Sequence record: PQ871103.1 | DNA length: 64,000 nt | DNA from: Escherichia phage vB_Eco_ZCEC15 | Reading direction: 5' to 3' (one strand) | In this document: in pieces, positions 6,020-64,000 of the stretch | Layout: every line of letters begins with the position of its first letter | Position numbering within the stretch: position 1 is the first letter of the stretch | Notes under the pieces: model-generated | Told to the model about the DNA's origin: nothing | Database searches by the model: none | Seen by the model: only the letters and a program-made list of their open reading frames with translations | Position numbers and translations under genes: made by a program

Positions 6020-6480
6020 TAGTAAAGGTCCTCAGAGTAAAGTTCTTTTTCACTACCACCGCGTTCAATACGTACTTGTCCGGCGTAAGTTGCAATAATC
6101 ATTGCTTCTTCGCGTGTCCAGTAATTGCTATACTGATCAATAAACCCTTGGTCATCATCACAAACTTGCTGAGTAACTAATTGAGGTTTAACTACATCTA
6201 AAACTTCTGCCATATCTTTAGAATAATGACGAGCACCTGGAATAACAAGAGTTCGTCCATCTTTTAATTTAAAACGGTTGGCGGCACAAACAATTCGTCG
6301 TTGATACTTTTGGTTTTCATCCCAGTATGCGGTCTGCCAACAGATTTCAGGAACTTCTTTCAGAATATCTTCTTCTGTGCATTTATAACCATGCGCTTTA
6401 AATTTTTCAACAAGACTTTCTGGAGTTTCACGACATAAAGGAACATTCAGCATTTTTAAACGATTAATAAATGGGTTCAT
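6019..6480 (-). CDS. hypothetical protein 153 aa
   Basis: ORF with stop overlapping the downstream start; no recognisable motif. Confidence 0.5.
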
Positions 6481-6806
6481 TTAAACCATCCTTTAATACG
6501 CTGCCACAAAGTTTTCTGTTGAGCTTTGTTAACACCAATTGAGCGAATAACTGGTTGAGATTCCTGGAATTCTTTATAATCAGCAAGGTAAATTTCGTAA
6601 GCTGAATCCATAAAGGAACTTATAGCTGCCATGAAATTATTGCGAATACCTACTGGAGCATCTTTACTTTCACGAATAATCATGTATTTACCAGTCTTAA
6701 TCTTTACGATAGTTCCAAGATAAGCTCCATGGTACCAGATGTCCCAACCCTCTTGAGTAGGTTCTACACAACGACGAAGTTCATTGACAATTTCTAACTT
6801 GTTCAT
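6477..6806 (-). CDS. hypothetical protein 109 aa
   Basis: ORF immediately downstream of motA, ATGA-type overlap with the next ORF. Confidence 0.5.
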
Positions 6807-6816
6807 TATTTATTCC

Positions 6817-7452
6817 TCACAGTTCAGATGCTACAGTGATTACAGCTTCAATGTTTTCTGCCGAGCGTTTAATGTCAAGATACACATTACCGTTTTTAGC
6901 GATTTTACATGACATTCCGATATCAGTAAATTTCTGAATATGATGTTCCATCATTTTGTATCCAAAAATTCGCATATTTCCATTATTGTTAATTTCAAAA
7001 TTACGAATTCCGTGAGTGCGTTTTTCTAAAATGGCAAGATAATTACTACGATAAGTTTCAACCTTTTTAAGAACAAATCCATTTTCATCTAAAAGTTTTA
7101 ACATGAGGTCTTTATCTTCTTCCATATCAGAAGTAATCTCACGAGCTTTACGAGTTGCTCGTTTTTTCAGTAGTTCAGGAGCATTTTCCTGTGCATATAA
7201 AGTTGCTGCATTTGAAATAATATCCTGAGCTTCTCCTGTAATGATTAATCCATCACCAGATTTCTCCACCAGGCCTTTTTTAATCAATACCCCAATATTA
7301 CTATTAACTACTGCGTTACCTAAATCTGGATGCACCTCACGAACTTCTGCGGCTGTAATGAAATCTTTCTTAGCAATGGTAATTAAAATCGCAGCAGTTT
7401 TTTCATTCAGAACATCGTTAGAAGCTTTGATGATGTAAGTTACTTTAGACAT
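6817..7452 (-). CDS. motA: middle-promoter transcription activator MotA
   Basis: 211 aa, MSKVTYIIKASNDVLNEKTAAILITIAKKDFITAAEVREVHPDLGNAVVNS.. matches remembered T4 MotA. Confidence 0.9.
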   Translation of the reverse strand: MSKVTYIIKASNDVLNEKTAAILITIAKKDFITAAEVREVHPDLGNAVVNSNIGVLIKKGLVEKSGDGLIITGEAQDIISNAATLYAQENAPELLKKRATRKAREITSDMEEDKDLMLKLLDENGFVLKKVETYRSNYLAILEKRTHGIRNFEINNNGNMRIFGYKMMEHHIQKFTDIGMSCKIAKNGNVYLDIKRSAENIEAVITVASEL

Positions 7453-7489
7453 TTTAATCTCCGTTTCAGTTCATTTATTTGATAGGTCT

Positions 7490-7518
7490 ATAGTATCATG
7501 TTTAAAGCAGAAGTAAAC
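7490..7518 (-). promoter_or_regulatory. early promoter upstream of motA
   Basis: minus strand GTTTAC, 17-bp spacer, TACTAT; about 30 nt upstream of motA ATG. Confidence 0.6.
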
Positions 7519-7557
7519 ACTTTTTTGCACTCTTTTTCAAGAGCTCTAATAAAGTAC

Positions 7558-7785
7558 TTACTTAATGTTCAGATTACGAACTTCGATTTCGTCTTCATGG
7601 GCAAAATCAAACTGTTTGAATTCTGTGTCACCTTTAAATTTAAAAATCATTGTGAAGAAAGTCAGAACACCAGGTTTTTCTTCACGAACTCCACAGATGT
7701 CATATTCAATACCATCTACAACCAGTTTGTTAGCAGTCAGAGCATTTTTAGCTTTAACGATTTCGTTTTCGATTTTAAATTTCAT
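7558..7785 (-). CDS. hypothetical protein 75 aa (motA.1 position)
   Basis: ORF between motA and 52, preceded by a degenerate copy of the motA promoter-proximal block. Confidence 0.5.
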   Translation of the reverse strand: MKFKIENEIVKAKNALTANKLVVDGIEYDICGVREEKPGVLTFFTMIFKFKGDTEFKQFDFAHEDEIEVRNLNIK

Positions 7786-7880
7786 TTTTGTATCTCCGGG
7801 TTGTTTGTTTCAGTTCATTTATTTGATAGTTGTATAGTACCACAGTATGCTTTGGGGGAGAGCCTCGGCTCTCCCTAAAA

Positions 7881-8030
7881 TTACTGCATGACTGTGATAA
7901 CTGTCATGATAACACGTTGAATTCCGAACGCAAGAAGACCTCCTGCTACGGCAGGAACAACACCTAAACCCGCCAGTAAAATGCCACCAGATACTAATGC
8001 AGCGCTTGTAATACCTATGAATGGACTCAT
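7881..8030 (-). CDS. small hydrophobic membrane peptide (49 aa)
   Basis: own translation MSPFIGITSAALVSGGILLAGLGVVPAVAGG..; ATG overlaps gene 52 stop (ATGA); below the ORF-track size cutoff. Confidence 0.4.
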   Translation of the reverse strand: MSPFIGITSAALVSGGILLAGLGVVPAVAGGLLAFGIQRVIMTVITVMQ

Positions 8031-9355
8031 TTGATTTCCTCTAAATCTTTGGTGTATTCTGTAACTACATCAGTAGTTTTCCAATATTCGTTTTCTTCTT
8101 TTTTAGCTTTAGCTTCTTCAGCAAGTTTCTTTGCTTCGTCGGAAGTCATATGAAAAATATTCATTCCAACTAGTTTATCAACATAAGAAGAATACATATC
8201 AATTTTAGAAAGTTCTTCGGTCAGTTCTTTGCGAGTTTTACCTTGTACAACAATTTCACCTGAAATTACTTTCTTAATGAAATGCGCCTTGGCAAAGGCT
8301 AAACGAAATGCTGATTCAGTTTCTTTGATTTTGTTATCAATTCGTTTTTGGACATAAGTTTTACGAACTTCAACGAAGTCTTTGATTAAATCAACTACGT
8401 TATCGTAAACTTGTAGTTTTCCTTTCTCATTAATAACGGTAATATTCTGGGAACGACGCTCAATCAACCCGAAGTCTTTCATAATTTTTGCATGGCGTTC
8501 TTCTTCGTTATCGCTCAAGGAATATTCTTTACGGAATTTAACTTTGAAGCCAAAACCATGCTCACCACAAGCATCATCCCATGTAATGAAGCCTTTATCT
8601 TCAAGCGGGTCTAAGATTTTACTCACATAAGTTTCACGATCATACTTATACGGAATCTCAGTGATATGCATTTGAGTTCGTGAAGTAAACTTGTACGTTC
8701 CACGAATTTCATATTGACCGTCAATTTCAACGACTTCACCGCGAAATTCTGGAAATTCTACCTTCGGTTTAGTTACTTTCTTTCCTTGAAGAGCTTGCAA
8801 TACAGCTTTCTTGACAGAAGAAACACTATGAGGAAGAATATAAGTTGCATAACCAGTTGCAATACCGGAAACACCATTAAGAAGAACAGTAGGAATAATA
8901 GGCAAATAGAAAGCAGGCGGAATGTGTTCTTTATCTTGATGTACCGGAGCATATTCAGTATCTTTATATACGCTATAGAAATTTTTACTTACACGAGCAA
9001 AAATATAACGACTTGCCGCTGCTTTTTGAACGGTACGAGAACCAAAGTTTCCTTGACCATCTAACAGAGGAAAGTTATTATTCCAAGTATTAGCCATCAA
9101 AGCACCTGCGTCTTGTGCAGAGTTTTCACCATGATGATATCCAAAGTCTGCTACACCACCTGCAATAGAAGCGAGTTTGTGAAACTTATCTTTATTTCCT
9201 CGTGCCAAATCAAGAGCTCGAGCAATAACAAATCGTTGAACTGGCTTAAATCCATCAATCATATTTGGGATAGCACGATTTTCAACCGTGTACATAGCAT
9301 AAGCCAATGCTTCGTTATCAATGATACTTTTTAAATCGCGATTATTCAGTTGCAT
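8027..9355 (-). CDS. 52: DNA topoisomerase II medium subunit gp52
   Basis: 442 aa, MQLNNRDLKSIIDNEALAYAMYTVENRAIPNMIDGFKPVQRFV.. GyrA-like, matches remembered T4 gp52. Confidence 0.9.
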   Translation of the reverse strand: MQLNNRDLKSIIDNEALAYAMYTVENRAIPNMIDGFKPVQRFVIARALDLARGNKDKFHKLASIAGGVADFGYHHGENSAQDAGALMANTWNNNFPLLDGQGNFGSRTVQKAAASRYIFARVSKNFYSVYKDTEYAPVHQDKEHIPPAFYLPIIPTVLLNGVSGIATGYATYILPHSVSSVKKAVLQALQGKKVTKPKVEFPEFRGEVVEIDGQYEIRGTYKFTSRTQMHITEIPYKYDRETYVSKILDPLEDKGFITWDDACGEHGFGFKVKFRKEYSLSDNEEERHAKIMKDFGLIERRSQNITVINEKGKLQVYDNVVDLIKDFVEVRKTYVQKRIDNKIKETESAFRLAFAKAHFIKKVISGEIVVQGKTRKELTEELSKIDMYSSYVDKLVGMNIFHMTSDEAKKLAEEAKAKKEENEYWKTTDVVTEYTKDLEEIK

Positions 9356-56345: not shown

Positions 56346-58159
56346 TGGTGTTTAACCCTATGCATGATTTCTTTATTTTTTCCAAGATTAAATCCGCGTT
56401 CATTCGGATTTCCCAAATAGCCACAAGTTCTTCTTATTGTGTTCATCTTTTTAGGATCAGTTTCTCCACAAATAGAACAAACAAACCCGTTTTCAGTAGG
56501 AGTCATTTCATGGGTACTTCCGCATGTAAAACATTTATCTACTGGCATATTAACACCAAAATAATCTAAATGTTGTGCAGCATAATCCCATACAGCCTCA
56601 AGACCTTTTAGGTTATTTTTCATATCAGGAAGTTCAACATAAGAAATGTGACCACCTGTCGCAATGAAATGATATGGGGCTTCGCGAGAAATCTTTTCAA
56701 ACGGAGTAATATTTTCTTCTACTGAAACATGGAAACTATTAGTGTACCAGCCTTTATCAGTAACATCCTTTACACTTCCATATTTCTCAGTATCAAGTTT
56801 ACAGAAGCGATAGCACAGGTTTTCAGCAGGAGTAGAATACAAGCTAAAAGCAAAACCGGTTCTTTCAGTCCACTGCTTAAGACGAGCATTCATTTTAGTT
56901 AAAATTTCCTGTCCAATATCACGACCGACAAGAATATTCAATTCGTGAATACCAATGTATCCTAAGGACACTGAACTTCTACCGTTTTTAAATAACTCAA
57001 TTATGTCGTCATCAGGTTTAAGACGAACCCCAAATGCACCTTCTTGGTAAAGAATAGGAGCAACAGTCGCTTTAACTCCTTTTAAGGAACTAATTCTACA
57101 CATCAAAGCTTCAAAACACAAATCCATTCGTTCATTGAACAATTCAGCAAATTTCTGTTCATTGAACTGTGTTCCAATATAAGAATCTAACGCAATGCGA
57201 GGAAGATTCAGTGTTACAACGCCAAGATTATTACGTCCATCAAGAATTTCATTACCAGTCGAATCTTTCCATACGCTCAAGAAACTACGGCAACCCATTG
57301 GAGAAACAGGAATAGATGAGCCGGTGATAACTTTATTGTTCTTAGCTGAAATAATATCAGGATACATTCTTTTGCTTGCACACTCTAAAGCAAGCTGCTT
57401 AATATCATAGTTCGGATCGTCCTTATAAAGATTAACACCTTCTTCAACGAACATAACAAGTTTAGGGAAAATAGGAGTTATCCCATCACGGCCAAGGCCT
57501 TTAATACGATTTTTCAGAATTGCTTTCTGAATCATTCGTTCAGTCCAGTCAGTTCCCGTACCAAATGTAATTGTTACAAAAGGCGTTTGTCCGTTTGAAC
57601 TAAAGAGAGTATTTACTTCATATTCATAAGCTTGGAATGCATCGTATACGTCTTTTTCTGTTTTAGATTGGGCATAATTCAATGCATCGGCGATTTGCCA
57701 TTTTTCTGCATCCTCAATATGTTTTGCATAGGTGCGTTTAACATATGGAGAAAGTACTTTATCTACATTCGCAAAAGTCGTTCCGCCATATTGATGAGAA
57801 GCAACCTGTGCAGTAATTTGTGCCATAATTGCAGTAGCAACGCCGATTGATTTAGGAGTTTCAATCTGCGCATTACCGAGCTTAAATCCGTTCTCAAGCA
57901 TTCCTTTTAAATCTACTAAACAGCAATTAGTAAATGGAAGAGCAGGGGAATAATCAATATCGTGGAAATGGATAATTCCGCTTTCATGCGCTTTCATAAT
58001 AAAAGACGGGACCATATTTTTGGCAATGTGTTTAGACACAATACCAGCCATAAGGTCCCGTTGAGTTGGAAAAACACGAGAATCTTTATTAGCATTCTCG
58101 TTCAAAAGGTCTTTATTAGTTTTATGAATCAATCCTTCAATTTCTTTTTCAATCGTCAT
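56342..58159 (-). CDS. nrdD: anaerobic ribonucleoside-triphosphate reductase NrdD
   Basis: 605 aa with C-terminal glycyl-radical motif RRTCGYLG and zinc ribbon CFTCG..CSICG. Confidence 0.9.
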   Translation of the reverse strand: MTIEKEIEGLIHKTNKDLLNENANKDSRVFPTQRDLMAGIVSKHIAKNMVPSFIMKAHESGIIHFHDIDYSPALPFTNCCLVDLKGMLENGFKLGNAQIETPKSIGVATAIMAQITAQVASHQYGGTTFANVDKVLSPYVKRTYAKHIEDAEKWQIADALNYAQSKTEKDVYDAFQAYEYEVNTLFSSNGQTPFVTITFGTGTDWTERMIQKAILKNRIKGLGRDGITPIFPKLVMFVEEGVNLYKDDPNYDIKQLALECASKRMYPDIISAKNNKVITGSSIPVSPMGCRSFLSVWKDSTGNEILDGRNNLGVVTLNLPRIALDSYIGTQFNEQKFAELFNERMDLCFEALMCRISSLKGVKATVAPILYQEGAFGVRLKPDDDIIELFKNGRSSVSLGYIGIHELNILVGRDIGQEILTKMNARLKQWTERTGFAFSLYSTPAENLCYRFCKLDTEKYGSVKDVTDKGWYTNSFHVSVEENITPFEKISREAPYHFIATGGHISYVELPDMKNNLKGLEAVWDYAAQHLDYFGVNMPVDKCFTCGSTHEMTPTENGFVCSICGETDPKKMNTIRRTCGYLGNPNERGFNLGKNKEIMHRVKHQ

Positions 58160-58629
58160 TTTAAACTCTTTCTAAGCTGCTTCTTAAATGAAGCTATTAA
58201 TTGTGTTTTAGTGTCAGATTCATTATATTCAAATCCTCTTTGAAGCATCTCAGCCATCATTTCCTCTTTTCCTAAACGAGAAAATTCCTTTGATTTATCT
58301 CCAACGAAGTTAGGGTGAATATTATTTTGGGTGTAATCGGATTTTAAATAAGTAAGTAAATTTTCTAACCATTCAAGATAATCAACGCCTTGCCCCTTTA
58401 AGCCAGAACGATTAAATTTGTGTTTCATTTGACCTTCCGCTGCATTGCAGAGATTACAGAGCAATCCACGTACCTTTCCTGCTTTTGGTCCATTTAATTC
58501 ATGGTCATGGTCAAGGTGATTAGCTTGAACATCAGGATTTAGTTCTCGTTGGCAAATTAAGCATTTACCGTTTTGTGCGTTATAAAATTTCTGTTTTTCT
58601 TCTTTGTATAATTTGCCAGTCAATAACAT
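58156..58629 (-). CDS. 49: endonuclease VII gp49 (Holliday junction resolvase)
   Basis: 157 aa MLLTGKLYKEEKQKFYNAQNGKCLICQRELNPDVQANHLDHDHELNG.. matches remembered T4 endo VII. Confidence 0.9.
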   Translation of the reverse strand: MLLTGKLYKEEKQKFYNAQNGKCLICQRELNPDVQANHLDHDHELNGPKAGKVRGLLCNLCNAAEGQMKHKFNRSGLKGQGVDYLEWLENLLTYLKSDYTQNNIHPNFVGDKSKEFSRLGKEEMMAEMLQRGFEYNESDTKTQLIASFKKQLRKSLK

Positions 58630-58847
58630 AATAAAATCCTTACCTTGAATAGATAAGGATATTTATTATTTTCAAGTATTGTAAAACATTCGATGCAATC
58701 GCTTATATTGTCGAATCATCTTTTTAGTAGGACGAGAATAAGTTCCTACACAAGTGGTCATATTAGGGTCAGTAGGACTTCCTTTAATAAAAAGTTTCCA
58801 GACTTTACCACCATTTAGCTTTTCAGTATAAATCAATTCAGTTTTCA

Positions 58848-59312
58848 TTAGAATGGCCTATCAGAAAAAGAAATTTGAGTTTCAAGCCATTCAATGTATT
58901 CTGCCGCAGCTTGCATCAAATTTCCTTCATAACCATCGTTATTTTCTTGTGCAGCTAATTTAGCTAATGCGTATGAAATGCGTTCACCTTGAAAAGCGGC
59001 TTTAGGTTTATGAATAACTTGATCAACTCGTTCTACAACTTCTTCAATTTCGCCATTTTCCGCTGATTCAGTATTCCACAAGCACCAATACGTAATTGGC
59101 TTATCATAGATGTTAATAATCTTTCCATTAGAAAGTTCAATTTCAATAATTCCAGTATCAGGTTCTATATCATCTTCGCATTCTTTTGCAAGTTCACGAA
59201 CTTTAAAGACAGTACCTGCACTAAGTTCCGGCCAGTAATTACACAGCCCTTTATCAGCACGATTAATTCTAAACCACTTATCTACTGCAATCATGTCCCA
59301 TCTCCATATCAA
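58848..59312 (-). CDS. hypothetical protein 154 aa (T4 pin region)
   Basis: ORF at the position where T4 carries pin; not verified. Confidence 0.45.
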   Translation of the reverse strand: MIWRWDMIAVDKWFRINRADKGLCNYWPELSAGTVFKVRELAKECEDDIEPDTGIIEIELSNGKIINIYDKPITYWCLWNTESAENGEIEEVVERVDQVIHKPKAAFQGERISYALAKLAAQENNDGYEGNLMQAAAEYIEWLETQISFSDRPF

Positions 59313-59417
59313 TTAAGTCGTTTATCGTCGGTTCATTATATACTGTTTCTTCATCAGTGTAAACCGGTTCTTCCGGCTCTGGCTCTACTGTTTCCCATCT
59401 AGCCGCCCACCAAGGTT

Positions 59418-59738
59418 TTATAGCGTAATCCATTCTCGTACTGTCTGAGTTACTACACGTTCACGGGGCTCGACTAGTTCAACAGTCGGAACTGCATAAT
59501 ACCAGTCAGAATGATAAGAACCTGAGCGAGATTCATTTACGGAAACATGTACATTGTGTTTTGGACTAAAATAAACACACTGACGATATTGGCATTTACC
59601 ATCTTGCACCCAGTCTTCTATTTCGATAGGTTTAAGATAATCCGAAAAATCGAAATCATAATTTTCTGAAAATGCATCATGGTCTTCGATGATTTCACTC
59701 AGAACTGCATCAACATCTAATTTATTTTCAATATTCAT
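59418..59738 (-). CDS. hypothetical protein 106 aa
   Basis: ORF in 49-nrdC interval. Confidence 0.45.
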   Translation of the reverse strand: MNIENKLDVDAVLSEIIEDHDAFSENYDFDFSDYLKPIEIEDWVQDGKCQYRQCVYFSPKHNVHVSVNESRSGSYHSDWYYAVPTVELVEPRERVVTQTVREWITL

Positions 59739-59748
59739 TTTTCACCAA

Positions 59749-60138
59749 TTAATTTCGCAATTTATTAAGTTCTTCATAATCAATCCAGGATTCTAGTCCT
59801 GATGGCAAATCAGATTCAATTTCCCAAAGAAGTTCTTCAATTTTCTGAAGACGATCTAATTCTTCAGCAGGAATAGTAACCATTGACGGAGTTCTTGATA
59901 CGCTAATATCGTAAATCATATTTACCCCCAGTTTGACCATACAATCGCCATATTTCCATTTAGAAATAGACTTTTCACCATTAGAATAATAAACTTCAAG
60001 TTTAGCACGATTATTTTTAATTTGAATAACCTTTGCTGTCATCAAAGTTCCATACCCATAATAAACTGTAACCTCATCACCTACATATACCGCGCTTCCG
60101 CGGTAGTCATGGATATAATCAGTTCCTTCGAGCATCAT
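59749..60138 (-). CDS. hypothetical protein 129 aa
   Basis: ORF ATGA-coupled to nrdC. Confidence 0.5.
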   Translation of the reverse strand: MMLEGTDYIHDYRGSAVYVGDEVTVYYGYGTLMTAKVIQIKNNRAKLEVYYSNGEKSISKWKYGDCMVKLGVNMIYDISVSRTPSMVTIPAEELDRLQKIEELLWEIESDLPSGLESWIDYEELNKLRN

Positions 60139-60398
60139 TTAAAGTATTCCCGCAATTGGTCAAATCCACCAATATGACTTCCATCAGGAGCAAATACTTG
60201 CGGCATTGTCAAACCAATTTGAGTATCACGACCTAGTTTCGTCAGAAGCTCAGCGATTTTCTCATCATCAAAAACACCTTTTTCCGGCATAATGTTGATA
60301 AATTCAAACGGCTGTTTCTTCACAGTCAAAAGACGTTTTGCATTATCACAATACACGCATTTATGGATACTGCTATCATAACCATATACTTTAAACAT
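60135..60398 (-). CDS. nrdC: thioredoxin/glutaredoxin NrdC
   Basis: 87 aa MFKVYGYDSSIHKCVYCDNAKRLL.. with CVYC redox motif; size matches T4 NrdC. Confidence 0.85.
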   Translation of the reverse strand: MFKVYGYDSSIHKCVYCDNAKRLLTVKKQPFEFINIMPEKGVFDDEKIAELLTKLGRDTQIGLTMPQVFAPDGSHIGGFDQLREYFK

Positions 60399-60399
60399 A

Positions 60400-60657
60400 T
60401 TATTCCTTAATTCCTAGTACTTGTTTAAAAGTCTCGTCGTAATCAAGACTTTGGCCAGTTTGTTCTTTATGTTTGTATATAATATCACTTACTTCTGATA
60501 GCATATTTTTATATGAACGAGTTAAAGCAGATTTAAGCACGCTGTATCTATCAGGAAATTTACCATGTTCATAATAATAAGCTATTGCTAATTCGCGGAC
60601 TGCCATTTCAGCAGTCTTCATATATTCTTTACGCTTGGACATTTTCTTCTCTCTCAA
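60400..60657 (-). CDS. hypothetical protein 85 aa
   Basis: ORF directly downstream of nrdC-upstream genes. Confidence 0.45.
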
Positions 60658-60946
60658 ATCGGTGTTTACAATGACGACATTTATAACGAAGATTACTAGT
60701 CTGCCAATGAACTAATTGTACCTGTTCAGTACCGCATTCAGGACAATTAGGAACGCTTTTAGAAGCCCTTTCGCGACGTTCAACCATAGCCATAATGGCA
60801 TCCCAAGCTGGAGGTTTAAAATCTAAATCATCGCAACCATGAATCTTTCCACGCATTTCCAGATCGTCTTCTTCACCAGCCATAATAATTTTAATTAGAC
60901 TGGAATTACTTGAAGCTGCAATATCTTCTAATAAGCGCTTTTTCAT
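60629..60946 (-). CDS. zinc-ribbon protein 105 aa
   Basis: [13 protein letters not shown] Cys4 ribbon. Confidence 0.5.
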
Positions 60947-61872
60947 TTCAATACCTCAATAGCATTACGTAAACCATTTGCTTTTGCATTAAGAGCTTTT
61001 AACAATTTGGTGTGTTCGGCAATCTGGGCTTCAACTTCAATTAAACGAGCATTGAGATATTCACGTTCTTCGCTCAGGTTATCAACCTTTTCTACTTTAG
61101 GTTCTTTTACAGCTGTCTTATATGTATTAGGGTTCTTCAGTTTAATTAGAATGCGTGAACTGTATAACATTGAACCATTATCTTCGGTTTCGTCATACAT
61201 TTCTACTACGTCCATGATTTTTAACATCATGCGGAGTTTATAAGACAACGAACGAATAGTTTTGTTGTGCTTATTAATTTCTCTAGAGTTCATGGTGCCG
61301 AGATTACGTGAGTAATAATAAGGAACCTGGATATTAATTAGCACTGATGAACCACCTGGCTTATGTGTTACTTCATCAGCAATAACCCAGTCCTTAACAT
61401 GAACTGTATTTGTACGGTCATCACCAGCAGTAAATAGTTTGCGAGCATGCTTAAAAAGCATATTCACTTGGGTATTGAATTGACAAGCAAATTGACAAGC
61501 AAATTTAGTTTCAGGAATGGTAGATAACCAATCAGCCAAATGGGTCTTTTTAACATCGTTAACAATAGTAAATTTAACCAAATCGGTTATAGATGTCGTA
61601 GATTTAATGAAGCTCGGCTTCATAAAGTTTTTAATGTTATCGCGAGCTACAGTAGAAGATAACATACGAGAACGTTTAAACCATTCAAGCAAATTGCCTA
61701 ACGAATGAGAATAAGCGTTTTGAGTATCTTTACAGATATGATTTTCCTGGCCAACATATTGAAGGAAATCACGAAGAATATTATTGATTACTGCTCTGTG
61801 TCCGATATTATAATTACGGTGTTTAGTAATAAGGCTGTCAAAATAATCAATATAATGTTTACGAGTTTTCAT
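60943..61872 (-). CDS. hypothetical protein 309 aa, paralog A with C-terminal coiled coil
   Basis: ATG start; C-terminal [37 protein letters not shown]; contains in-frame 12-bp tandem duplication (FACQFACQ). Confidence 0.55.
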   Translation of the reverse strand: MKTRKHYIDYFDSLITKHRNYNIGHRAVINNILRDFLQYVGQENHICKDTQNAYSHSLGNLLEWFKRSRMLSSTVARDNIKNFMKPSFIKSTTSITDLVKFTIVNDVKKTHLADWLSTIPETKFACQFACQFNTQVNMLFKHARKLFTAGDDRTNTVHVKDWVIADEVTHKPGGSSVLINIQVPYYYSRNLGTMNSREINKHNKTIRSLSYKLRMMLKIMDVVEMYDETEDNGSMLYSSRILIKLKNPNTYKTAVKEPKVEKVDNLSEEREYLNARLIEVEAQIAEHTKLLKALNAKANGLRNAIEVLK

Positions 61873-61924
61873 GTTCTTCTCACTTGGTTAATGATTTATA
61901 CTCCGAGCCATCCTTGGCTTTAAA

Positions 61925-62926
61925 TTACTTAATTAACTGTAAAGCTTGTTCAAGACGATCCAGGCGATTAACAGATTCTTCCCAAATCCTTTTAGCTTGC
62001 TCATATTCTTTCTGCGCTTTATTAGAAATTTCTAGAACTTCTTTATAAGCTTTTTCTAATGCAATAACTTCTGGACGAATTTCTACCGGTTCAGGTGAAT
62101 CGTCAAGACATTCCATTAGTTCCTCAAGGGTAGTTTCTTCTTTAGGAGTATTCACAATTTCTTCACATTTTTGTTGATAAATTTCTTTATCAGTCGGTGA
62201 GTACGCACACTTTACTTCACGGAGACTAACTACAATTTTATATCCTTCCCAACCGCATATATTCTTAAAAGGATAAGTATGAATATTTTCTACTGTTTCC
62301 ATACAAAGTAATGCGGTCTCTAACTGACGAGTTATATCGCTAGCAATTGAGAAAAATTTATTAATGTTCTTTTGATTAGCTTCTGGTGTAAAAAATTCAT
62401 AATTCACAAAAATAGCTGCTTTATTTTTATCAAGTTCATATTCTTTTATGATAATCATATCAGAAGCCCAAGGATGAATTTGACGATAATCGCCATAGCA
62501 TAATTTAGAAGCTGATTTTAGAATTTGCTTTTTGAAAAGTCTGAAATTACTAATCCAACGACGAGTAAAAATATTCTTAGTGTCTTCTTTATTATTAAGA
62601 TGATATGAATTAACATCACCGAACCAATTATATCCTACTACATCTTTAGTTCGTTTAATTTCTTTCCCAAATTTACCGAGAATATCTTGGTTAACTAAAT
62701 ATGAAAGAAGACGAGAACCTTTGAAGGTTTCCTTAATATCATCTTTATATTCGCGACTAGAAATTTTATGAACTTCATGAATAAATTTGTTGGAAGAGAC
62801 AATACTTGCATCAGTATTATTGAGCCATTGATTGATAATGGAAATAACACTATTCTGACTAGACACAGGTTTAACTTTATCATCAATAACGCTATTGAAT
62901 GATTTGATATATTCGTTACGAGTCAT
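61925..62926 (-). CDS. hypothetical protein 333 aa, paralog B with C-terminal coiled coil
   Basis: start set at ATG 62926 with GAGGAGATTAAT SD (ORF-track start lies inside the upstream promoter). Confidence 0.55.
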   Translation of the reverse strand: MTRNEYIKSFNSVIDDKVKPVSSQNSVISIINQWLNNTDASIVSSNKFIHEVHKISSREYKDDIKETFKGSRLLSYLVNQDILGKFGKEIKRTKDVVGYNWFGDVNSYHLNNKEDTKNIFTRRWISNFRLFKKQILKSASKLCYGDYRQIHPWASDMIIIKEYELDKNKAAIFVNYEFFTPEANQKNINKFFSIASDITRQLETALLCMETVENIHTYPFKNICGWEGYKIVVSLREVKCAYSPTDKEIYQQKCEEIVNTPKEETTLEELMECLDDSPEPVEIRPEVIALEKAYKEVLEISNKAQKEYEQAKRIWEESVNRLDRLEQALQLIK

Positions 62927-62954
62927 ATTAATCTCCTCAGTAGAAAGTAAGAAC

Positions 62955-62984
62955 ATTATACCACATCCTTGTGGCAAAGTAAAC
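62955..62984 (-). promoter_or_regulatory. early promoter
   Basis: minus strand GTTTAC TTTGCCACAAGGATGTGG TATAAT; near-identical to the promoter at 15936-15965. Confidence 0.65.
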
Positions 62985-63979
62985 TAGTTTAGTGCATTTA
63001 GTGCATTGTTCAGTTTAGAACGTTGCTTCGTAAGATTTTTGACTTTTTCTTGAGCTTTTTCTAGCATCTTTTCAGCTTCTAACACTTCATTAGTTGCTTT
63101 AACGAGTTCATCATCTACTGCCTTGATAGACTTCTCAATCGCATCCGCATGCCATTTTTCAACAGGTTTAAGACTCGGATTTTCAACAGGAAGAAAATTC
63201 ACTTTATTGAATTTCCATGCATCTTTATTACTTGAACTATACATCCAAAATTTAGGATCGTTTGATGAGTAATTGGATAAATTTAAGTTATCTTGCACTT
63301 CCTGCTTTTTCTCTTGTGGGACTTCGTCCTTTCTCAAAAAACCGTATTTAAATGAAACGATCATATCAAGTTCATACGTTGTTGTATGTTCCCAATTTCG
63401 CTCAAAATGAGGTAAAATCTTAGACTGAACAGCGGCAACAACATCCATATACTTAAATGCTTCTGTCAACTGTGATTTAAGGCATTCGCAAATTGAAAGA
63501 GAATTTTTTGTATTAGGTTTAAAGCTAATTCGCGCAGTTCTGTTATTTTCTTTTAATGGTCTTACTTCCATCTGAAGAGTATAACCATCAAATTTCAGGT
63601 TCTTTAAGTTAATGTCAGAACCTTTTAATCGACTAGCCGTCGACAAAATTTGCTTTAATTGTTTACGGAATAGAGCAATAAATCTCCATTCAAGACGGTA
63701 ATGATTTGGATTGAAAAATCCAGATGATAAATCGACCTTACTTTGGCCAACACCTTGAACAAATAGAGGATTTTTATAATCAATAGTTTTACAGAAATCA
63801 GTGAGCTGCTCACGAGCCGTCATTTGTGTAATATATCCTGCTTGGTTAAAATTGCGCACCCATTCACTGCTGTTCAGATGTTTAAAGGCATGAATGGAAC
63901 AATTAACTTTACCAAGGTCTAAATTATTTTCACACAAAAACGTCATAGCATCACGAGTATAGCTGGCATTACGAACCAT
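62984..63979 (-). CDS. hypothetical protein 331 aa, paralog C with C-terminal coiled coil
   Basis: ATG start at 63979; C-terminal ELVKATNEVLEAEKMLEKAQEKVKNLTKQRSKLNNALNALN. Confidence 0.55.
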   Translation of the reverse strand: MVRNASYTRDAMTFLCENNLDLGKVNCSIHAFKHLNSSEWVRNFNQAGYITQMTAREQLTDFCKTIDYKNPLFVQGVGQSKVDLSSGFFNPNHYRLEWRFIALFRKQLKQILSTASRLKGSDINLKNLKFDGYTLQMEVRPLKENNRTARISFKPNTKNSLSICECLKSQLTEAFKYMDVVAAVQSKILPHFERNWEHTTTYELDMIVSFKYGFLRKDEVPQEKKQEVQDNLNLSNYSSNDPKFWMYSSSNKDAWKFNKVNFLPVENPSLKPVEKWHADAIEKSIKAVDDELVKATNEVLEAEKMLEKAQEKVKNLTKQRSKLNNALNALN

Positions 63980-64000
63980 ATCTTCAATTTGAGAACGAGT

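Follow-up and report, generated by a model that had tools for sequence, protein, structure and literature searches.

What do the tandem genes upstream of nrdC do for a T4-type phage? We addressed this question at the end of a 64,000-nucleotide stretch of Escherichia phage vB_Eco_ZCEC15 (sequence record PQ871103.1, hereafter the window), a Tequatrovirus with a T4-type genome. The original prediction had described here three consecutive minus-strand open reading frames (ORFs), seen as a triplicated, diverging family with a possible anti-defence role. The description holds for the most part and errs in several details. The three ORFs are indeed present, at 60943-61872 (gene A), 61925-62926 (gene B) and 62984-63979 (gene C); all features given below lie on the minus strand. 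Matched to the annotated T4 reference, A is nrdC.3, B is nrdC.4 and C is nrdC.5. The explanation that we prefer, with a probability of roughly 0.55, is that nrdC.3 to nrdC.5 are diverged tandem copies, that gene C counters the Escherichia coli defence Dsr1, and that its paralogues are sister inhibitors. This is no new kind of system, since the anti-Dsr1 activity, the genes themselves and two of their families had been recorded before. The new element, a modest one, is the link of an anti-Dsr1 protein to three uncharacterised neighbour genes.

The trio belongs to the nrdC-mobD block, whose early genes are non-essential, and is located upstream of nrdC.2, nrdC.1 and the thioredoxin gene nrdC; the gene order nrdC.2-.3-.4-.5 is the same in the window and in T4. 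Bases 60600-64000 share 99.1% DNA identity with Escherichia phage UGKSEcP2, and about 95% with hundreds of T-even phages. Gene A (309 amino acids, aa) and gene B (333 aa) match phrog_1435 over their full length (E 8.8e-115 and 3.7e-165, respectively). Pfam gave no informative domain for either in the local copy, and homologues of both at 95-98% identity carry a precomputed PF26897 (Phage_T4_Y04OP) assignment. A and B are thus ordinary members of the NrdC.3/NrdC.4 family (PF26897, PHROG 1435). Gene C matches Pfam DUF7235 (PF23882; 409.7 bits, where the gathering cut-off is 30; E 1.2e-122) and phrog_2351 (E 1.3e-161), with no direct match to the PF26897 and phrog_1435 profiles. It is cut by the window end (62984-64000). 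Its frame continues without a stop to base 64000 (...T R S Q I E D M V R N), and all homologues start with MKTRSQIEDMVRN (MKTRSQIED...). The start is therefore placed at the ATG AAA at 64006-64001, two codons past the window, which gives a protein of 340 aa; the 331 aa first counted were an artefact of the window edge.

A function has been published for the T4 copy of nrdC.5. A T4 deletion mutant failed to plate on E. coli ECOR17, or on MG1655 with ECOR17 dsr1, and deletion of dsr1 restored plating (Srikant, Guegler & Laub, eLife 2022, PMC9391042). In the same study, T4 nrdC.5 expressed alone restored plating of the deletion mutant on Dsr1 E. coli, a genetic suppression (PMC9391042). Dsr1 is the SIR2-domain defence of E. 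coli ECOR17 and depletes nicotinamide adenine dinucleotide (NAD+), and NrdC.5 is among the few known phage answers to it. Gene C is like T4 nrdC.5 in its position between nrdC.6 and nrdC.4, in its DUF7235 membership and in sequence, with 91% aa identity and a ratio of nonsynonymous to synonymous substitution rates (dN/dS) of 0.19. The differences are concentrated in the linker and among the first ~45 residues. By orthology to the T4 gene, gene C is likely the anti-Dsr1 factor of this phage. The predicted anti-defence role is hence backed by experiment on the T4 gene in the case of C; for A and B it follows from paralogy alone.

How closely, then, are A and B related to C? A and B are unambiguous paralogues, as BLASTP aligns them with an E of 3e-6 (25% identity over 226 aa) and hhalign matches A to the nrdC.4 family with a probability of 98% (E 1.3e-13). 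Gene C joins them at the level of profiles, the other check that had been proposed. When the nrdC.5 alignment was still shallow and held only sequences at 79-95% identity, hhalign returned probabilities of 9.5% and 0.9%, uninformative values obtained before distant homologues were joined. Such homologues, at 21-29% identity, were found by tblastn in Dhakavirus and Gaprivervirus. Once they were added, the broadened nrdC.5 profile matched A+B with a probability of 91.1% (E 1e-6). The alignment begins at residue ~37, ends at the C-terminus and covers 247 collinear columns, among them motifs outside the coiled coil. Its score of 53.3 stands above the maxima of 50 column-shuffled (23.1) and 50 block-shuffled (37.9) profiles, and above one reversed profile (13.0).

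Two further searches point the same way. The A+B hidden Markov model (HMM) scores C at 9-11 bits and ranks it first against 54 other ORFs of the window used as decoys; 2 of 5000 shuffles reach this score, so the nominal HMMER E-value for C of 1e-5 is over-optimistic. In an exhaustive HMM search of 1.84 billion representatives, the A+B profile retrieved 11 proteins only, all phage-like, and no cellular relative. One of the 11 is P0163, a metagenomic PF26897 protein, which also matches the nrdC.5 profile (94%, E 1.8e-7, 241 columns) and by its sequence bridges the nrdC.3/4 and nrdC.5 families. C is very probably a remote paralogue of A and B. A, B and C are accordingly described here as diverged tandem copies of a single ancestral gene, and the predicted triplicated family holds, with A and B as its solid pair and C as its remote member. 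The databases file NrdC.5 (DUF7235, phrog_2351) and NrdC.6 (PF26899, Phage_T4_Y05B) apart from PF26897 and PHROG 1435. In contrast, we join the nrdC.5 family to it by profile comparison and the bridging sequence, and nrdC.6 by profile and fold evidence.

The common sequence is spread over the proteins. The blocks LFKKQILKSASKL, LFRKQLKQILSTASRL and MLFKHARKLFTAG of A, B and C, which had been taken as shared N-terminal sequence, are homologous according to hhalign and the superfamily alignment; they form a conserved helix in all three, located at residues ~100-150 and not at the N-terminus. The conserved family helix FRLFKKQILKSASKLCYGD of B (62489-62545) has its equivalents in FNTQVNMLFKHARKLFTAGD of A and FRKQLKQILSTASRLKGSD of C, again from hhalign and the superfamily alignment. 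Motifs common to the three families are an invariant N-terminal T-R, F(K)xSR(L/I)LS...FG, a helix with ...ILKxAxK..., a helix with L..AL..M..VE, and a terminal L..A(L/I)..LK with invariant L and A.

Predicted structures show a similar build. The AlphaFold model of B (predicted local distance difference test, pLDDT, 83) has a helical N-domain (residues 3-84), an alpha/beta core (88-235), a disordered linker (261-279) and a C-terminal helix (285-332). In the model of C a helix spans residues 272-330, with a pLDDT of 77-92 over the final 50 residues. Both models have the same order of elements, namely a helical N-region, a helix, one or more beta-hairpins, a helix, a beta-hairpin, a disordered linker and a long C-terminal helix. 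They also have the BFVD neighbours CBH8 and Cronus in common, although the matches of C are weak corroboration given its low-confidence model.

Each protein ends in an amphipathic coiled coil, as had been predicted, and these coiled coils are real. They lie in the C-terminal 42 aa of A (60946-61071), in residues 285-333 of B (61928-62074) and in residues 272-331 of C in window numbering (62987-63166). The hydrophobic excess at heptad positions a and d was reached by none of 2000 shuffles for C, by 6 of 2000 for B and by 51 of 2000 for A, which makes A marginal. The helix of A nevertheless has an a/d hydrophobic fraction of 0.83, against 0.33 elsewhere, and aligns with the terminal helices of B and C. 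Sequence matches in the PDB were limited to the Myc leucine zipper for the B profile and a keratin coiled coil for C. The array thus supplies a conserved domain plan: cytoplasmic proteins of ~300-340 aa with an M(K)TR start, a helical N-domain, an alpha/beta core, a variable disordered linker and a terminal coiled coil.

Selection acts on these genes in a characteristic way. The dN/dS is 0.1-0.3 for nrdC.3, nrdC.4 and nrdC.5 (0.15-0.30 for nrdC.3 and 0.13-0.28 for nrdC.5), compared with 0.00-0.02 for nrdC and gp49 when the same pairs of genomes are used. This indicates purifying selection on real proteins, whose rate of evolution is about ten times that of the neighbouring core genes. More than 550 sequenced phages have kept the copies, and some of the copies are broken. 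The nrdC.4 gene is split into two ORFs in phage T2 (A0A2Z5WKJ2, 155 aa) and in vB_EcoM_G8 (A0A482N302, 158 aa), probably by a frameshift or as a pseudogene. In P0057, nrdC.5 (...AWKFNKVN) is naturally fused in frame to nrdC.3 (MLFKHARK...), with the whole nrdC.4 deleted. The fusion point is a short common DNA stretch, AATTCAATA...AAGTGAAT, and the N-terminal part of nrdC.5 remains as a 115-aa ORF. The fusion was found on a 167-kb contig (L011, 3570-4900) and a 24.5-kb contig (L012, 1931-3261), and it shows that the array is dispensable and recombines between its copies. Such split, fused and frameshifted copies are as expected for accessory genes. In a separate observation, the tblastn match of nrdC.4 in Shigella phage Sf25 falls in two pieces across ~1.25 kb, and nrdC.3 is annotated there with 240 aa only.

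As the sister gene nrdC.5 has been published as blocking Dsr1, the uncharacterised nrdC.3 and nrdC.4 become candidate anti-defence genes. A and B, together with nrdC.6, may be sister inhibitors tuned to other Dsr1 variants or to other defence sensors. Paralogy, fast evolution and patchy loss suggest this, and we rate it as possible, at slightly under even odds. The four-gene array would in this way turn the hypothetical T4 genes nrdC.3, nrdC.4 and nrdC.6 into concrete anti-defence candidates.

Several points weigh against our explanation. Pairwise BLASTP of C against A and against B found no significant match, so the alignment check that had been proposed for the three proteins succeeded for A and B only. 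The model of C has a low overall pLDDT of 53, and the structural support for C is indirect. The anti-Dsr1 activity was demonstrated with the T4 allele, which is 91% identical to gene C. A literature search for nrdC.3 and nrdC.4 found no work, and nrdC.6 is likewise without experiment. Finally, direct binding of NrdC.5 to Dsr1 is proposed by analogy with the phage protein DSAD1 and its target DSR2.

Among the other explanations, the one that survives best limits the anti-defence role to NrdC.5. In that case NrdC.3 and NrdC.4 would use the same scaffold for early tasks unrelated to defence, for instance host takeover or the modulation of a host or phage complex, or would be redundant or decaying. 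The silence of the literature on these two genes fits this well, as do the split of nrdC.4 in T2 and G8 and its loss in the nrdC.5/nrdC.3 fusion, which mark the genes as dispensable. Moreover, the identity of A and B to C is as low as ~20% in the superfamily alignment. The dN/dS of 0.1-0.3, however, shows that selection maintains the copies, more than 550 sequenced phages retain them, and the array occupies the same locus across Straboviridae subfamilies. Anti-defence genes, too, are typically dispensable and patchily lost. We therefore consider a lone role for NrdC.5 doubtful.

The preferred explanation, in which NrdC.5 and its paralogues are inhibitors, also has a mechanism to propose. The sensor of Dsr1 is built of tetratricopeptide repeats (TPR), is shared with Avs7 and is triggered by the phage major capsid protein (2026 preprint, PMC12803255). 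The product of gene C would be made early and would oligomerise through its coiled coil, the oligomeric state being part of the proposal. It could then occupy Dsr1, most plausibly at the TPR sensor, in advance of the major capsid protein, which is the trigger and comes late. Dsr1 would no longer be switchable by the late capsid protein. By analogy, we hold it about evenly balanced that an early, coiled-coil-oligomerised NrdC.5 binds Dsr1 and probably its sensor.

The analogy is with DSAD1 of an SPbeta-group phage, which inhibits DSR2. According to two reports, DSAD1 binds the sensor region of DSR2, in competition with the structural protein that acts as the trigger (PMC10981675, PMC11087589). 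DSAD1 and NrdC.5 are both phage proteins that counter a SIR2-domain, NAD+-depleting, single-protein defence. Their targets differ, as Dsr1 has a TPR sensor and a capsid-protein trigger, and the two are likened as a working analogy and not by sequence or fold.

NrdC.5 might instead defeat Dsr1 indirectly, by masking or chaperoning the capsid-protein trigger or by acting downstream on NAD+ metabolism. The published data, being genetic suppression only (PMC9391042), are compatible with this, and indirect counters to NAD+ depletion exist in NARP1 and NARP2. The core of B weakly resembles virion neck, tail-terminator and tail-completion folds (lambda gpU, SPP1 gp17-like, T5 p142 and neck proteins of gene transfer agents), and the core of C does likewise at low confidence, a likeness that would suit the binding of a virion protein. 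On the other hand, searches of Pfam, PADLOC and PDB sequences found no enzyme-like domain (PADLOC gave nothing beyond a coiled-coil-type BrxC match, E 0.008), and no family match looks catalytic. Furthermore, nrdC.5 has been named an early gene (PMC9391042), and the capsid protein is late. An indirect action is for these reasons unlikely.

Convergence, in which C would be no paralogue of A and B and would resemble them through AT-rich composition and a generic C-terminal coiled coil, agrees with the failed BLAST comparison, the separate family given to C by Pfam and PHROGs, the mere 9.5% of the shallow profile and the over-optimistic HMMER value, and is nevertheless very improbable in view of the collinear columns outside the coiled coil, the score above every shuffled and reversed null, the double match of P0163, and the invariant N-terminal TR, order of secondary structure, adjacency and orientation that the proteins have in common.

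If NrdC.5 and its paralogues are indeed sister inhibitors, the whole array from nrdC.3 to nrdC.6 might be a panel of sensor-blocking decoys. Each member would act against another clade of capsid-sensing defence proteins with TPR sensors, that is, the Dsr1/Avs7 family with its varied effectors, and other sensors of structural proteins would be possible targets. The core would derive from a virion fold of the neck or tail-terminator type, and the coiled coil would serve for oligomeric avidity or for hetero-oligomers. Such a panel would be conserved near nrdC across Straboviridae, including Acinetobacter phages. This extended proposal is speculative, and we think it improbable as a whole.

A T4 precedent for a set of this kind is found in the internal proteins. 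IPI, IPII and IPIII are a set of T4 accessory internal proteins, of which at least IPI* counters a specific host defence and whose members defeat different ones. IPIII, too, counters a specific host defence (PMC9391042). Like nrdC.3 to nrdC.6, they are a non-essential, fast-evolving and patchy set of related T-even accessory genes. The internal proteins are loaded into the phage head and enter the host by injection; the NrdC.3-6 proteins, by contrast, have no packaging signal and come from early transcripts.

The gene nrdC.6, just past the window end and immediately upstream of nrdC.5, is probably the fourth family member. It has the family motif RRLLALGARLAKGLD and a C-terminal coiled coil. 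The model of B matches "nrdC.6 [phage JS10]" in BFVD with a Foldseek E of 8e-5 (template modelling scores 0.43/0.50), and hhalign of the nrdC.6 profile with that of the combined superfamily gives a probability of 83% (E 9e-6), a match above the nulls. Plain HMM searches with the profiles of A, B and C gave no signal for NrdC.6, and hhalign of nrdC.6 was weak against A+B alone (E 0.03) and against nrdC.5. In the T4 reference (NC_000866), one A is missing near the 3' end of nrdC.6 (gagctgAatatttct), which gives 275 aa instead of 296 (T4 locus L002, 10067-10150, compared with UGKSEcP2 locus L003, 10416-10560). This frameshift removes the C-terminal coiled coil and creates a 70-nt 'intergenic' gap before nrdC.5 in the annotation.

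More distant relatives were found by fold. The model of B matches uncharacterised proteins of ~300-370 aa from T4-like phages in BFVD (E 1e-4 to 4e-7). The hosts of these phages are Acinetobacter, Pectobacterium, Erwinia, Serratia, Enterobacter and Klebsiella. The two matches in Acinetobacter phage Acj61, Acj61p120 and Acj61p121, are adjacent and lie two ORFs from nrdC, with a sequence signal that is weak yet collinear. Because these two genes adjoin each other close to nrdC, the tandem arrangement of the B fold in this neighbourhood is old within Straboviridae. The Acj61 locus (6229-8938) also carries adjacent genes for a nicotinamide phosphoribosyltransferase and a ribose-phosphate pyrophosphokinase. 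These resemble NARP2, an NAD+ reconstitution pathway described as a counter to NAD+-depleting defences.

The latest addition to the array is nrdC.3, which came about when nrdC.4 was duplicated along with its early promoter. In Dhakavirus and Gaprivervirus, the loci examined carry nrdC.6-nrdC.5-nrdC.4 and no nrdC.3, which marks nrdC.3 as the youngest copy; it is of the nrdC.4 type and restricted to Tequatrovirus. Each gene had been expected to have its own promoter, with a canonical early promoter for gene C. The canonical T4 early promoter, at 62984-62955, in fact precedes gene B. It reads GTTTAC-N14-gtggTATAAT, with 10 of 12 matches and a TG extension in the promoter scan, and its first G doubles as the final base of the stop codon of nrdC.5. 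In phage ASO78A the annotation marks this element as a T4 early promoter, and GTTTAC and TATAAT are kept in Dhakavirus and Gaprivervirus despite diverged flanks. For nrdC.5, whose upstream region falls beyond the window, the stop of nrdC.6 in UGKSEcP2 is followed after only 8 nt by the start of nrdC.5, and a promoter of its own is not borne out.

Gene A has only a degenerate copy of the promoter, as its upstream region failed the scan, which found a canonical early promoter for nrdC.4 only. The 52-nt spacer between B and A (61873-61925) contains ATTTAA at 61925-61920 and TATAAAT at 61900-61894, with the hexamer spacing off by one, and a ribosome-binding site. It aligns with the promoter and ribosome-binding region of nrdC.4 in IME08, VR26 and E33 (ATTTAAAGCCAAGGATGGCTCGGAGTATAAAT vs GTTTACATCCAAGGATGGATGGAGTATAAT). 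The duplicated unit which gave nrdC.3 therefore included the nrdC.4-type early promoter, since decayed, and the -10-like box differs among close relatives. A late promoter before nrdC.3 was considered, as TATAAATC differs from the T4 late consensus TATAAATA at just one of its 8 positions. It was rejected, as the box is not conserved in close relatives (CATAAAT, TATAAAC) and is better explained as a decayed early -10.

The 333-aa start of gene B is the ATG at 62926, behind a GAGGAG Shine-Dalgarno sequence at 62938-62933, and agrees with the T4 annotation. Two longer versions were rejected: an ATG start giving 343 aa falls within the -10 box, and a TTG start giving 350 aa was set aside in favour of the annotated start with its Shine-Dalgarno sequence. 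A terminator scan flagged a 7-bp hairpin, TGCCACAAGGATGTGGTA, at 62959-62976, within the spacer and -10 of the nrdC.4 promoter. Dhakavirus has CCAAGGATGGATGG at these positions, so the hairpin is not conserved there and is probably incidental.

The allelic history of nrdC.3 differs from that of its neighbours. Between the window (60943-61872) and T4 (locus positions 6934-7860), nrdC.3 is 61% identical with a synonymous divergence (dS) above 1, whereas the flanking genes are 88-99% identical. This divergence reflects an allelic replacement or mosaicism limited to one gene of the array. Across about 650 phages, tblastn revealed three discrete classes of nrdC.3 alleles, at identities of at least 90%, ~75% and ~60%, with T4 and T2 in the ~60% class.

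Gene A also contains a perfect 12-bp tandem (61478-61505; 2.3 copies in Tandem Repeats Finder), in which TTTGCTTGTCAA occurs twice and encodes FACQFACQ. The repeat had been reported correctly, and its reading as a duplication has to be revised. Relatives, including the 99%-identical UGKSEcP2, have TTTGCTGATAAA TTTGCTTGTCAA at this site, which encodes FADKFACQ. An alignment with four relatives shows that GATAAA became TGTCAA in repeat unit 1, three substitutions without a change in length, and this change is not present in UGKSEcP2. The tandem is thus a strain-specific micro-conversion, or a template switch between adjoining imperfect repeats, and not an insertion.

A few minor observations were made in the surroundings of the array. 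An Rfam scan of 58000-64000 gave no matches. The homologue of pin, the Lon protease inhibitor (58848-59294), encodes 148 aa, compared with 161 aa in T4 and UGKSEcP2, and is ~13 codons shorter at its end; a separate 58-aa ORF follows it at 58672-58848. In four of the five Dhakavirus and Gaprivervirus loci examined, an ORF of ~71 aa lies between nrdC.6 and the nrdC.5-like gene (L006, 4733-4948; L007, 2263-2478; L008, 2224-2439; L009, 2191-2406). IME08 has a 186-nt gap without an annotated ORF (L005, 4743-4929), and Tequatrovirus has none. In one record, this ORF is called 'TMhelix containing'.

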